Both the position numbers and the translations under genes were made by a program. A DNA stretch of 31,902 nt, taken from positions 1-31,902 of the forward strand of contig JAPLGR010000191.1 of assembly GCA_026390045.1 (NCBI GenBank). Direction: 5' to 3'. Below are positions 17,770 to 22,082 of this stretch, in pieces. This DNA comes from Chloroflexota bacterium (GTDB lineage Bacteria; Chloroflexota; Anaerolineae; Anaerolineales; E44-bin32). Position 1 is the stretch's first letter. Each line of letters opens with the position of its first letter. The notes under the pieces were generated by a model. That model was given only the letters and a program-made list of their open reading frames with translations, searched no databases and was not told where the DNA came from.

Positions 17770-18552
17770 TTAACCGAACCTCCCGGTCACGTAGTCCTCG
17801 GTGCGTTTGTCCTTGGGCCGGGTGAAGACCTTCTCCGTCACGTCGAATTCGACCACCGTGCCAGCCCTGTCGTCGTCCATAGCCATCATGGCCGTGTAGT
17901 CGGAGGCGCGGGCGGCCTGCTGCATATTGTGCGTGACGATGATAATGGTGTAGTCCGTAGCCAGCTCGCGCATCAGGTCCTCGATCTTGAGTGTGGCGAT
18001 CGGGTCGAGCGCCGAGCAGGGCTCGTCCATCAGAATGATCTCCGGTTCGACCGCCAGGGCACGGGCAATACACAGGCGCTGTTGTTGGCCTCCGTCCAGC
18101 GACAGCGCGCTGTGGTTAAGACCATCCTGGACATCATCCCACAGCGCGGCTTGGCGGAGAGACCGTTCGACCAGGTCATCGAGGCTGCCCTGGAACCCGT
18201 GGACACGGGCGCCCCAGGCCACGTTCTCGTAGATGGACTTGGGAAACGGATTGGGTTTCTGGAACACCATCCCGATGCGGCGACGCAGGGAGACCGGATC
18301 AACCGAGCCCCCATAGATATCTTGGCCGGCGAAGCGGACTTGACCCTCGACGCGGAAGCCGGGAATGAAATCGTTCATCCGGTTGAACGAGCGTAGCAGC
18401 GTGCTCTTGCCGCAGCCGGACGAGCCGATAATGGCCGTGATGCGGCGCCGAGGGATGCTCAGGTCGATGTCGCGTGCTGCCCGGAAGCTGCCGTAATACA
18501 GGCTGAGCCCCCGCACCTGGAGGACTGGCGTATCGCCTTCCACGCTGTTCAT
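17770..18552 (-). CDS. pstB: Phosphate ABC transporter ATPase PstB, copy 1 (degenerate signature LDGGQ); start may be GTG 18543
   Basis: [39 protein letters not shown] and [10 protein letters not shown] motifs. Confidence 0.95.
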
Positions 18553-18599
18553 TCTACCCAATTCCGCCTCGCGGCGGCATGTTGGGGCGCTCGTATAAT
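18551..18599. promoter_or_regulatory. Back-to-back -10 elements for pstB1-phoU (TAGAAT, minus) and pstSCAB (TATAAT, plus)
   Basis: TATAAT at 18594-18599 is 7 nt before pstS ATG 18607; TAGAAT at 18551-18556 (minus) is 7 nt before in-frame GTG 18543. Confidence 0.6.
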
Positions 18600-18606
18600 T
18601 GGCGTC

Positions 18607-19506
18607 ATGCGGTCCACCAGGGTCCTGCTGATTGCGATGACGATCCTTGCTGCCGGCTGCCGGCCAGCCTCAAACGCCGCGACCCCGGCGGGCGCGGATT
18701 ACATCGAGAACCGCGGCTCCGACACGATTGTCAACCTGGCGCTGGCATGGGCCGAACGATACCAGGAGCTACATCCCGAGGTGCGCATCTCGGTCAGCGG
18801 AGGGGGCAGTGGCGTGGGCATCACTGCCCTGATCAATGGGACGGTCGACATCGCCAACGCCTCACGGCAGATCAAGCCAGAGGAGATTCAGGAGGCCGAG
18901 GCGCGCGGTATCCAACCGGTCGAGTTCATCATCGCGCGCGACGCCATCGCCGTGATCGTCCACCCCGACAACCCGGTCAGTCAGTTGACGCTGCAGCAGA
19001 TCTCCGACATCTACAGCGGCCGGATCAATAACTGGCGTGAGGTCGGCGGTGAGAACCGACCCATCGTGCGGCTGTCGCGCGAGACCAATTCCGGGACGCA
19101 CGTCTACTTCCTGGAGAAGGTCTTGCGGCTGGGCGATTCCGACAGCGACACGCTCTTCTCGACCGACACCCTGCTGCTACCTTCCTCGGAGGGTATCGTC
19201 TACGAGGTGCGACAGAACCCGAACGCCATCGGCTACGACGGCCTGGGCTACGTGCCGCCCGACCTGAAAGTGATCGCCGTGGCGCGGCAGGCCGGTGGCC
19301 CGTTCCTGCTCCCGTCGGTGGAGACGGTCAACGATGATTCGTATCCGGTGGCGCGCGACCTGTACATGTACACCGCCGGCCAGCCTTCCGGCGCCGTAGC
19401 TGACTACCTGGGCTGGATCCTCTCGTCGGAGGCGCAGCCCATCGTGGCGGACCTTGGCTTCGTCCCGGTCACCGCGGCCCCGCAGGCCCCAACGCAGGGA
19501 GGCTGA
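18607..19506 (+). CDS. pstS: Phosphate ABC transporter substrate-binding lipoprotein PstS
   Basis: Lipobox LAAGC; [38 protein letters not shown] and [10 protein letters not shown] motifs. Confidence 0.95.
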
Positions 19507-19514
19507 GTCCGACC

Positions 19515-20438
19515 ATGTGCGCAACGCCAGCGAAGGGCGCGGCGGACCCGCCGCTCAACTGGCAGGAGGCAGTCCTCTCACGCGTCATCCGGCTGTCCGG
19601 CTATTCGGCCATCGTCTTTGTCGGCCTGATCTTTGCCTTCCTGGTCCGCGAGGGGCTGCCGGCCCTGTTCGAGGTGCCGCTGAGCGACCTATTCAGCGTG
19701 CGCTGGTATCCGATCGAGGGCTACTTCGGCATCCTGCCGCTGATTACGGGCTCGCTCATCGTCACCCTGGGAGCCATGGCCGTGGCGATCCCCTTCGGAA
19801 TCGGAACGGCGATGTTCATCTCCGAGATCGCCCCGCGCTGGGCACGCGAGGTGCTCAAGCCGATGGTTGAGCTGCTCGGCGGCCTGCCCTCGGTCGTGCT
19901 CGGCTTCCTGGGCATCTTGATCCTCTCCCCCTACCTGCGGCAGGCGCTGGATCTGCCCACGGGCTTGACGGCGCTGGCCGGCTCGCTGCTGCTGGCTGGG
20001 ATCGCGCTACCCACGATCGTGTCCATCGCCGAAGACGCGTTGGACGCGGTGCCGAAGTCCTTCCGCGAAGGGGCGCTGGCTCTAGGGGCGACGCGCTGGC
20101 AGACCATGTGGGGGGTGACGCTGCCAGCGGCACGTTCGGGTGTACTCACGGCGGTAATGCTTGGGATCGGGCGTGCCATCGGCGAAACGATGGCGGTCAT
20201 GATGGTCACCGGCAACGCCGCAGTGCTTGCCGTCCACCTGGCCTCGATCGTCGCGCCGGCCCGGACGATGACTGCCACGATCGCGGCTGAGATGGGCGAA
20301 GTGGCGACCGGAAGCATCCACTACCACGTGCTGTTCTTCATTGGCATGGTGCTGTTTCTGATCTCGTTTGCCGTGAATGTCACCGCTTCAGCGGTCGTCT
20401 TCCGCCAACGGTCGCGAGCGGAGAGGGTACTGTCGTGA
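19515..20438 (+). CDS. pstC: Phosphate ABC transporter permease PstC
   Basis: ELLGGLPSVVLG, EGALALGATRWQT (EAA loop), GRAIGETMAV and TMTATIAAEMGE motifs. Confidence 0.95.
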   Translation: MCATPAKGAADPPLNWQEAVLSRVIRLSGYSAIVFVGLIFAFLVREGLPALFEVPLSDLFSVRWYPIEGYFGILPLITGSLIVTLGAMAVAIPFGIGTAMFISEIAPRWAREVLKPMVELLGGLPSVVLGFLGILILSPYLRQALDLPTGLTALAGSLLLAGIALPTIVSIAEDALDAVPKSFREGALALGATRWQTMWGVTLPAARSGVLTAVMLGIGRAIGETMAVMMVTGNAAVLAVHLASIVAPARTMTATIAAEMGEVATGSIHYHVLFFIGMVLFLISFAVNVTASAVVFRQRSRAERVLS

Positions 20439-21322
20439 CGTCGACCGGCGAGCCGCGGCAATATCGGGCCAGCGCCGGCAGCCGATTGCTGGCACAGCGG
20501 TTTGGCTTCGCGGTGCTGGCACTCATGGCCCTGGCAACCGTCGTCCCGATCGTGTTAGTTGTGGCCCACATCGTGCTCCAGGGCGCGCCGGCCATCTCGT
20601 GGGAGTTCCTGAGCGGCGTCCCGCGGGAGGGGATGCGGCAGGGCGGCATTCTACCGGCCATCGTCGGCACGTTCTACTTGACGCTGGGCACGGCGGTGTT
20701 CTCGGTTCCGCTGGGAGTAGCCGCAGCGATCTATCTGGCCGAGTACGCCCGCGAAACCGCGTGGACGCGCCTGATCCGCGTGGCTATCATCAACCTGGCC
20801 GGTATCCCCTCGGTGGTCTACGGCCTGTTCGGGCTGGGGCTGTTCGTGCTTTTCCTGCGCTTCGGCACGAGCATCCTGGCCGCCTCGCTAACCCTCTCCA
20901 TCATGACCCTGCCGGTGATCATCAGCGCTTCGGAGGAAGCGTTGCGGGCCGTGCCGCAGGCATTCCGGACGGTCAGCGTCTCGCTGGGAGGGACGCGTTG
21001 GCAGACGATCCGACGCATCGTCCTGCCGCAGGCAGTGCCGGGCATCCTGACCGGAGTGATCCTCGGCCTGGAGCGCGCCGCCGGCGAGACTGCCCCGATC
21101 CTTTTCACCGGGGCGGCCTTCTTCTTGCCGCGGTTGCCGAACTCGCCACTCGATGCGACCATGGCGCTGCCCTATCACTTGTTTGTCATCTCGACCCAAG
21201 TGCCGGAAATGCCACTGCGCATCCAGTACGGCACCGCGCTGGTCCTGATCGCGTTCGTCCTAGGCATGAACCTGATCGCCACCGTCATCCGCTCGCGGGC
21301 CCGCGCCCGCCGGCAGTGGTAG
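20435..21322 (+). CDS. pstA: Phosphate ABC transporter permease PstA
   Basis: GTGA overlap with the pstC stop; AAIYLAEY, NLAGIPSVVYGLFG, EEALRAVP and ERAAGETAP motifs. Confidence 0.95.
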   Translation: MTSTGEPRQYRASAGSRLLAQRFGFAVLALMALATVVPIVLVVAHIVLQGAPAISWEFLSGVPREGMRQGGILPAIVGTFYLTLGTAVFSVPLGVAAAIYLAEYARETAWTRLIRVAIINLAGIPSVVYGLFGLGLFVLFLRFGTSILAASLTLSIMTLPVIISASEEALRAVPQAFRTVSVSLGGTRWQTIRRIVLPQAVPGILTGVILGLERAAGETAPILFTGAAFFLPRLPNSPLDATMALPYHLFVISTQVPEMPLRIQYGTALVLIAFVLGMNLIATVIRSRARARRQW

Positions 21323-21326
21323 CCGG

Positions 21327-22082
21327 ATGGACAAGATCGTCGTCGAGAACCTGACGCTGCAGTATGAGGACGGGACCGAGTCACTGCGCGGGGTGACGAT
21401 GTCCATTCCTGCCAACGCGATCACTGTGCTGTTTGGCCCGGCAGGCGGCGGCAAGTCGTCCCTGCTGCGCTGCTTCAACCGCCTGAACGACCTGGCCGAC
21501 GTGAAGGCCGTCTCGGGGCGCATCCTGCTCGACGGCGTGAACGTGCTCGACCCGGGCGTGGACGTGGTCGCCCTGCGGCGTAAGATCGGCATGGTCTTCT
21601 CCCGGCCGGTCGTTCTGCCCTTCAGCATCCGCGCCAATTTGACCTACGGTCTAGAGTTGATGGGTGAGCGAAACCCGCGACGCTTGGACGAAGCCGTCGA
21701 GCACAGCCTGCGCCTGGCGGCGCTATGGGACGAGGTCCACGACCGGCTTGACGACCCAGCCATTGCCTTGTCAGGAGGTCAGCAACAACGCCTTTGCCTG
21801 GCGCGCTCTCTGGCGCTGCAACCGGAGGTGGTGCTGCTCGACGAGCCGACCTCTGGGCTCGATCCAATCTCGACCGGGAAGGTTGAGGCGGCCCTGCAGC
21901 AGCTCAAGAAGGACTACACCATCGTCCTCGTCCCCCATTCGATCCAGCAGGCCGGACGGATGGCCGATTTCGCCGTGTTCTTCTTGCAGGGTGAGCTAGT
22001 CGAATCCGGGCTGGGCAAAGACCTGTTCACCCATCCTCGCGACAAGCGTACTGAAGACTACGTCACCGGTCGCTTCGGATAG
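21327..22082 (+). CDS. pstB: Phosphate ABC transporter ATPase PstB, copy 2 (degenerate Q-loop VFSRP)
   Basis: GPAGGGKSS, LSGGQQQRL, LLDEPTSGLD, VPHSIQQA and [10 protein letters not shown] motifs. Confidence 0.93.
   Translation: MDKIVVENLTLQYEDGTESLRGVTMSIPANAITVLFGPAGGGKSSLLRCFNRLNDLADVKAVSGRILLDGVNVLDPGVDVVALRRKIGMVFSRPVVLPFSIRANLTYGLELMGERNPRRLDEAVEHSLRLAALWDEVHDRLDDPAIALSGGQQQRLCLARSLALQPEVVLLDEPTSGLDPISTGKVEAALQQLKKDYTIVLVPHSIQQAGRMADFAVFFLQGELVESGLGKDLFTHPRDKRTEDYVTGRFG

Follow-up and report, generated by a model that had tools for sequence, protein, structure and literature searches.

Two PstB paralogues with complementary ATP-site deviations in an Anaerolineales phosphate importer and in related PstB pairs

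The window analyzed here is a 31,902-nt stretch of DNA (contig JAPLGR010000191.1 of assembly GCA_026390045.1, positions 1-31,902, forward strand) from the metagenome-assembled genome of an uncultured Chloroflexota bacterium (GTDB Anaerolineae; Anaerolineales; E44-bin32). It encodes a Pst phosphate importer together with two paralogous ATPases, PstB1 and PstB2 (both encoded at 17770-22082), one with a deviant signature and the other with a deviant Q-loop. In ATP-binding cassette (ABC) dimers the subunits lie head to tail, with the Walker A, Walker B, Q-loop and H-loop of one facing the signature of the other, so both deviations would fall in the site built from the catalytic side of PstB2 and the signature of PstB1. 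An earlier reading of this DNA (the original prediction) had proposed just this, with the other site left consensus, and the proposal is supported by 36 of 37 related pairs and by 7 of 7 tandem pairs. The conserved degenerate-site PstB pair is real, its design is known from ABC exporters, and the window holds a mild instance that is evolutionarily young on the partner side. Judging from these sequence patterns, PstB1 and PstB2 quite likely serve one PstSCA importer as its two distinct nucleotide-binding subunits.

PstB1 contains Walker A GSSGCGKST, Q-loop VFQKP, Walker B LMDEP, D-loop SALD and H-loop VTHN, and its signature reads LDGGQ. PstB2, which is 47% identical to PstB1, contains Walker A GPAGGGKSS, signature LSGGQ, Walker B LLDEP, D-loop SGLD and H-loop VPHS, and its Q-loop region reads VFSRP. 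Both proteins were aligned over their full length to Escherichia coli PstB (PDB 9k3x, the best PDB match of PstB1, E 8e-87), and the alignment is gap-free across the motifs. It places the serine (Ser) of PstB2 at the Q-loop glutamine (Gln) and the aspartate (Asp) of PstB1 at the signature Ser, confirming the two substitutions as predicted. PstB2 retains the Walker A lysine (Lys), the Walker B Asp-glutamate (Glu) and the H-loop histidine (His) but lacks the Q-loop Gln; replacement of the Walker B Glu or the H-loop His, typical of the exporter examples, is not found in it. The prediction had also described the D-loop and Walker A of PstB2 as variant; the Walker A sequence GPAGGGKSS nevertheless fits the consensus GxxGxGK[ST]. 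PstB2 scores below the equivalog cut-off of TIGR00972, yet it aligns over positions 2-248 of 248 and this is by far its best family, which makes it a divergent PstB paralogue rather than an equivalog.

The codons involved are at least two nucleotides from the consensus residue, as had been claimed (GAC is 2 nt from any Ser codon, and TCC differs from both CAA and CAG by 3 nt). A caveat applies to PstB2, in which the relevant distance is to its predecessor. Relatives with 91-94% identity read VFARP, while P0001 (97%) and P0004 (93%) read VFSRP, which indicates that the Ser is a recent change from alanine (Ala), historically a single nucleotide away, and seen in independent assemblies. For PstB1, the relatives P0122 and P0123 (95% identity) also carry the signature Asp, in the form LDGGE.

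The features of the locus are as follows.
16948-17643, minus strand: phoU, co-oriented with pstB1 and downstream of it (TIGR02135, 212 bits, cut-off 130).
17770-18552, minus strand: pstB1 (TIGR00972, 375.8 bits against a cut-off of 343.2), catalytically complete with a deviant signature.
18085-18099, minus strand: PstB1 signature LDGGQ, with the Asp codon GAC at 18094-18096, aligned to LSGGQ of E. coli PstB.
18553-18606, 54 bp: intergenic region separating the divergent genes pstB1 and pstS, in which TATAAT was read from the sequence at 18594-18599.
18607-19506, plus strand: pstS, phosphate-binding protein (TIGR02136, 248.9 bits against a cut-off of 206.6).
19515-20438, plus strand: pstC permease (TIGR02138, 269.7 bits).
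20435-21322, plus strand: pstA permease (TIGR00974, 282 bits).
21327-22082, plus strand: pstB2 (best family TIGR00972, 314.5 bits, under the 343.2 cut-off), closing the pstSCA operon.
21600-21602, plus strand: PstB2 Ser codon TCC (VFSRP), aligned to the VFQKP Gln of E. coli PstB.
21768-21782, plus strand: PstB2 signature LSGGQ, which would complete a consensus site with the Walker A and B motifs, Q-loop and H-loop of PstB1.
21852-21863, plus strand: PstB2 D-loop SGLD, a hallmark of the subfamily lacking the Q-loop Gln (hereafter Q-less).

The two ATPase genes lie in divergent transcription units, pstB1 with phoU and pstB2 at the end of pstSCA, and both are encoded alongside pstS, pstC and pstA. 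As predicted, pstB1 is the copy co-oriented with phoU. The most likely start of pstB1 is the ATG at 18552, which gives 260 amino acids (aa) as in homologues, rather than the TTG at 18561; likewise, the start of phoU was placed at the ATG that yields 231 aa, matching homologues. The source genome (3.37 Mb, about 91% complete, 736 contigs) was searched in full and contains two PstBs and a single pstC/pstA pair; no second pair turned up in this about 91% complete genome, so both PstBs have only that permease pair to serve. A third candidate PstB on contig C636 (L003, 235 bits) was rejected as a GlnQ-type amino-acid ABC ATPase that sits beside an amino-acid permease.

Loss of the Q-loop Gln is a feature of a whole subfamily. 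Among the 120 best database relatives of PstB2 (77-97% identity; named sources are Anaerolineales or Chloroflexota), the Gln is missing from every one, with 118 reading VFARP and two VFSRP. GPAGGGKS[ST], SGLD and VPHS are kept throughout, and the LSGGQ pattern was matched in 115 of 120. Genomic context came from 80 loci fetched using PstB2. Motif states in these were read from alignment columns instead of from the regular-expression Walker B calls on tree labels, some of which were false matches. The 58 PstB2 relatives in these loci form one monophyletic Q-less clade with full support. All 58 lack the Gln (46 Ala, 12 Ser), and all 58 retain the signature [LI]SGGQ and the H-loop His; SGLD is found in the Ala-type Chloroflexota clade. 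Four of them have in addition exchanged the Walker A Lys for arginine (Arg; GPAHSGRST) together with the Walker B Glu for Ala, and one (L077) has asparagine (Asn) in place of the Walker B Glu. PstB2 proteins with the Lys-to-Arg and Glu-to-Ala changes (L061-L065), or with Glu to Asn (L077), should be inactive as homodimers.

The reciprocal change is found in the partner. In 37 loci a second PstB is encoded divergently upstream of pstS, as in the window. Walker A Lys, Q-loop Gln and Walker B Asp-Glu are present in all of these partners (37/37), as is the H-loop His (36 of the 36 that are complete there), and 36 of the 37 have a non-canonical signature. LSLGQ and LSLGE are the most common forms, alongside LALGQ, FALGQ, FSLGQ, LAGGQ, LDGGQ, LDSGQ and LTAGQ. 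Other PstBs in the same loci, among them those of second pstSCAB operons of the same genomes and of Firmicutes and ANME-1 outgroups, are canonical in 27 of 27 cases (Fisher p = 3e-17 for the contrast, without phylogenetic correction). The pairing also holds where the genes are unlinked. Three genomes with an Ala-type PstB2, a full upstream flank and no adjacent partner were checked, and each has an orphan LSLGQ PstB elsewhere. The expectation that Q-less PstB2 and signature-degenerate partners co-occur was thus borne out for linked genes (37 loci) and unlinked genes (3 of 3 genomes). In one genome (G012) that has only two PstBs and a single pstCA, PstB2 lacks the Q-loop Gln and reads Asp-Asn in Walker B while the partner reads LTAGQ, so that only a mixed dimer would have an intact site. 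Gene-wide ratios of nonsynonymous to synonymous substitution rates (dN/dS) are 0.15-0.20 for pstB1 and 0.08-0.10 for pstB2, and both genes are under purifying selection. Being clade-wide and reciprocal, the motif features are far beyond chance.

Two further arrangements were seen in these loci. Three genomes (G002, G004 and G005; L093/L094, L092/L096 and L089/L095) have the divergent phoU-pstB / pstS...pstA-pstB layout with both PstBs fully canonical, and two-PstB Pst systems may therefore predate degeneration. In G007 and G008, a third kind of PstB-like ATPase (L122:1486-2244, and L121) is encoded immediately after a pstA-like gene. Its signature is LSIGQ, its Walker B reads LLCDEI and its H-loop region is an odd VMVTHVLRQA; it appears to be the sole ATPase of its operon, and sits on a very long tree branch.

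Reciprocity was also found outside the Chloroflexota. A search of 1.84 billion cluster representatives returned further Q-less PstB clusters, of which P0273 was followed and led to a cross-phylum family of at least 120 proteins. These have Ala at the Q-loop Gln and Asn at the H-loop His (VTNNTKQA), with LSGGQ in 118 of 120 and D-loop SGLD in 112 of 120. The few named records are Sorangium sp. So ce260 (complete genome), Polyangiaceae and Gemmatimonadaceae. In all seven loci read, the Q-less PstB with LSGGQ is followed in tandem by a second PstB, often with a 4-bp overlap, and this second protein has canonical catalytic motifs and the signature LSGEQ, LSAEQ, LTSEQ or LPLEQ. The reciprocity of catalytic-side and signature deviations, as read from the motifs, recurs in every one of these tandem pairs. 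A single clade comprises the Q-less proteins of both Chloroflexota and the other phyla (92 in the Shimodaira-Hasegawa-like approximate likelihood ratio test, SH-aLRT). In Sorangium sp. So ce260, a 594-aa BPD_transp_1 gene (L129:4220-6004) lies between pstS and the tandem pstB pair, and looks like a fused PstC-PstA permease.

These data suggest how the importer may work. PstB1 and PstB2 would each dock on one of PstC and PstA. The consensus site would combine the Walker A, Walker B, Q-loop and H-loop of PstB1 with the LSGGQ of PstB2, and hydrolysis there would drive phosphate import. The degenerate site would consist of Walker A, Walker B and the H-loop of PstB2, without the Q-loop Gln, closed by the LDGGQ of PstB1. 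It is expected to be slow or non-hydrolytic, and retention of the Lys, Asp-Glu and His by PstB2 means that it probably still binds ATP. Since the matched pairing recurs across the Anaerolineae and, as tandem genes, in other phyla, only one ATP site of the pump is probably fully competent to run it. The PstBs of E. coli PstSCAB sit one on PstA and one on PstC (PMC12976172), so a heterodimer would simply give each permease one paralogue, and one active site can be enough for a type I importer, as reported for HisP2MQJ (PMC3971661).

The partner in the window does not belong to the same lineage as most others. Trees were built as a quick tree of 130 rows and a careful tree of 72 rows with a mixture model. 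On the careful tree most partners form an old clade (support 100/98), with PstB1 of the window outside it. PstB1 instead belongs to a young partner clade of 19 proteins (itself, L009, L010 and 16 metagenome proteins; support 97/82) that is nested within canonical PstBs from second operons (96/90). The approximately unbiased (AU) test on the careful tree rejects uniting the old and young partners (p = 0.0014), which speaks against one common origin of the divergent partners. Where the context of young-clade genes is readable (the window, L009, L010 and L111-L114), they occupy the divergent position and are followed by phoU. The genomes of L009 and L010 were checked and lack an old-type partner. 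Replacement of the partner in the window lineage is favoured by these sequence relationships, although not proven. Linkage to phoU was considered as a defining feature of partners and rejected, as just a minority of old-clade loci have phoU after the partner. The suggestion in the original prediction that the degenerate site could serve sensing or PhoU coupling is not supported, phoU linkage not being conserved.

L010 has two PhoU genes (2317-3276 and 7983-8639), one after the young PstB1 and one after a canonical PstB, whose products are 83% and 85% identical to PhoU of the window. Such a pattern fits an origin of the young partner in a duplicated pstB-phoU module.

Signatures in the young clade are diverse, comprising LSGGQ, LAGGQ, LDGGQ, LDGGE, LSIGE, LDWGQ, LGGGQ and LGGGE, despite the pstB1 dN/dS of 0.15-0.20. 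Changes at signature positions 2-5 were counted along the tree.
Young partner clade: 9 changes over a tree length of 3.76.
Old partner clade: 7 changes over a tree length of 8.12.
Canonical lineages: 0 changes over a tree length of 14.13.

Replacement of Ser by Asp in the signature was gained at least three times (the window clade, the P0171 group and the L061-L064 group). The simplest reading of these patterns is that a copy of a canonical pstB took the place of the old partner, that the signature of the newcomer was then freed from constraint, and that it is now diversifying. The Q-less PstB2 type would be old, and the constraint on LSGGQ would be lifted on whichever PstB pairs with it.

It is also conceivable, although we consider it doubtful, that a Q-less PstB2 imposes degeneracy on its partner and that an acidic signature residue turns the non-cycling site into a permanent or regulatory latch. 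Import would then use one ATP per cycle, the second site would be free to set the conformational equilibrium believed to be read by PhoU and PhoR, and the window lineage would be an early replay of this process after partner replacement. The phosphate signal of PhoU/PhoR is believed to draw on the conformations of Pst. Acidic residues have arisen independently, both as the Ser-to-Asp gains in Chloroflexota, at least three in number, and as the change of glycine (Gly) to Glu that is fixed in the tandem family.

Several observations weigh against the combined interpretation of a heterodimer with a recently replaced partner. The AU test on the quick tree is non-significant (p = 0.094) and does not reject a single origin, and the partner clades were named only after a tree had been seen. 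L009, the nearest genome relative, and several young-clade proteins retain LSGGQ in PstB1, so the change from Ser to Asp is recent and could be nearly neutral. The original prediction had taken canonical motifs in close relatives as a sign of local decay; this was not seen for PstB2 and was seen in part for PstB1, through L009. The substitutions in the window are mild, and with the Lys, Asp-Glu and His of PstB2 in place the second site may hydrolyse ATP. The physical PstB1-PstB2 heterodimer is itself something we infer from motifs. Finally, in Anaerolineaceae including Bellilinea (L028, L038-L044, L048, L050 and L052-L054) a Ser-type Q-less PstB2 with VFSRP, ISGGQ, SALD and APHNTQQA terminates pstSCA, and in the five genomes checked a degenerate-signature PstB was found nowhere in the genome. 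Loss of the Gln alone demands no such partner, and is tolerated whether the PstB2 pairs with itself or with a canonical PstB.

The Anaerolineaceae case also lends weight to a different explanation, in which PstB1 and PstB2 each homodimerise and the two homodimers are alternatives on the same PstCA, with phosphate regime as one example of what might set them apart, and with the motif changes tuning their rates. Placement of pstB1 and pstB2 in separate divergent units fits this idea, as does the finding that in Enterococcus faecalis PstB2 is required, PstB1 is accessory, and excess PstB2 substitutes for PstB1 (PMC12096839), so that homodimers of PstB paralogues can function. We nevertheless regard it as unlikely, as it leaves unexplained why deviations are confined to the catalytic side in one protein and to the signature in the other while the complementary motifs stay invariant. 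Homodimers of the PstB2 proteins of L061-L065 and L077 should be inactive although the genes are conserved, and the tandem pairs elsewhere, often with 4-bp overlaps, argue for 1:1 co-assembly. It is more improbable still that PstB1 is a PhoU-associated signalling ATPase with no role as a transporter subunit, leaving transport to a PstB2 homodimer. The co-transcription of pstB1 with phoU here and in the young clade is in its favour, as is a PhoU-PstB interaction in E. coli that PMC12976172 attributes to Gardner et al. 2014. Only a minority of old-clade partners lie beside phoU, however, and no PhoU match was found in the short loci fetched around orphan partners. PstB1 also keeps the canonical Q-loop region PNPFPKSI, which by analogy with other type I importers is taken to lie opposite the coupling helix of the permease. 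Both signatures of a PstB1 homodimer would be deviant, and the PstB2 variants without catalytic residues could not power transport alone. We consider it barely credible that the deviations are assembly errors or the onset of pseudogenisation. The genome is indeed fragmented (736 contigs), but the same residues occur in the independent assemblies P0001, P0004, P0122 and P0123, the reading frames are intact with dN/dS of 0.08-0.20, and the Q-less state is kept across the 58-member clade; sequencing error or decay is refuted on these grounds. Among these explanations we favour the PstB1-PstB2 heterodimer.

Elsewhere in the locus, a perfect TATAAT at 18594-18599 stops 7 nt ahead of the pstS ATG (18607), so the pstS mRNA may be leaderless or nearly so; a promoter scan gave no match in 18553-18606. 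A 938-aa P-type cation ATPase (13941-16757 of the window) comes after phoU, and likewise in L111 and L113. Beyond pstB2 the window contains a MutY-like gene (22150-23301) and then a gene for a large hybrid histidine kinase (23249-27118). In the relative L111 their place is taken by a canonical pstCAB operon in convergent orientation, which the source genome appears to lack.

Degenerate ATP sites are a major topic in work on ABC exporters such as TAP, CFTR and TM287/288. Importers that depend on a binding protein are usually regarded as symmetric machines whose two sites are equivalent. A conserved Pst importer with a single consensus site would, if true, give a handle on the number of ATP molecules used per cycle by a type I importer. 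It would also bear on a regulatory role of the second site, given the presumed link of Pst conformations to PhoU/PhoR. The Anaerolineae offer a graded series, from loss of the Gln only, to loss of the Gln with a signature change, to forms that have also lost the Walker A Lys and the catalytic Glu. They also offer an apparent evolutionary replicate, in which the partner was replaced and the signature of the new partner began to diversify. Experiments should be feasible on the tandem form, since one of the strains that carry it is a cultured Sorangium whose genome is complete. All of these PstB paralogues are currently annotated simply as "phosphate ABC transporter ATP-binding protein".

No published description of a degenerate-site PstB pair was found in the open-access full-text and preprint literature searched, and the closest known systems each share part of the arrangement. 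E. coli PstSCAB (PDB 9k3x, 9k3y and 9k3s; PMC12976172) has the same subunits, PstS, PstC, PstA and two PstB, with one PstB per permease. Its PstBs are identical and form two consensus sites, whereas those of the window are paralogues that are 47% identical, carry complementary deviations and are encoded in divergent units. The tandem PstB1/PstB2 of Firmicutes are, as in the window, two paralogues for one pstSCA. In E. faecalis they are functionally non-equivalent with canonical motifs (PMC12096839), and in Bacillus subtilis PstBA and PstBB have been modelled as a heterodimer (PMC11466899). These pairs are co-oriented within a pst-phoU operon and have no reported degenerate site, while the genes of the window are divergent, are split by pstSCA, and each encode a deviant protein.

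The logic of one consensus and one degenerate site is that of the heterodimeric ABC exporters TM287/288, BmrCD, TAP and CFTR (PMC7756269, PMC3971661), in which catalytic-side deviations of one nucleotide-binding domain and a deviant signature of the other meet in a single composite site while the second site is conserved, and degenerate sites have been described as frequent in exporters (PMC3971661, PMC7756269). Those proteins are type I exporters (type IV fold) built from half-transporters in which transmembrane and nucleotide-binding domains are fused, and the usual change is at the Walker B Glu or the H-loop His. The system in the window is a binding-protein-dependent type I importer with free nucleotide-binding subunits, in which only the Q-loop Gln and the signature Ser have changed. 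Importers with one site degenerate by sequence are also represented by RbsA and NupO (PMC11466899), although their nucleotide-binding domains are fused in one polypeptide and they belong to another ABC family, not Pst. Further counterparts are the tandem pairs of other phyla, which share the Q-loop Gln-to-Ala subfamily, SGLD, LSGGQ and a partner with a reciprocally degenerate signature. They differ in having Asn at the H-loop His and Glu at position 4 of the partner signature, whereas the window has divergent genes, an intact H-loop His and a young replacement partner that reads LDGGQ.

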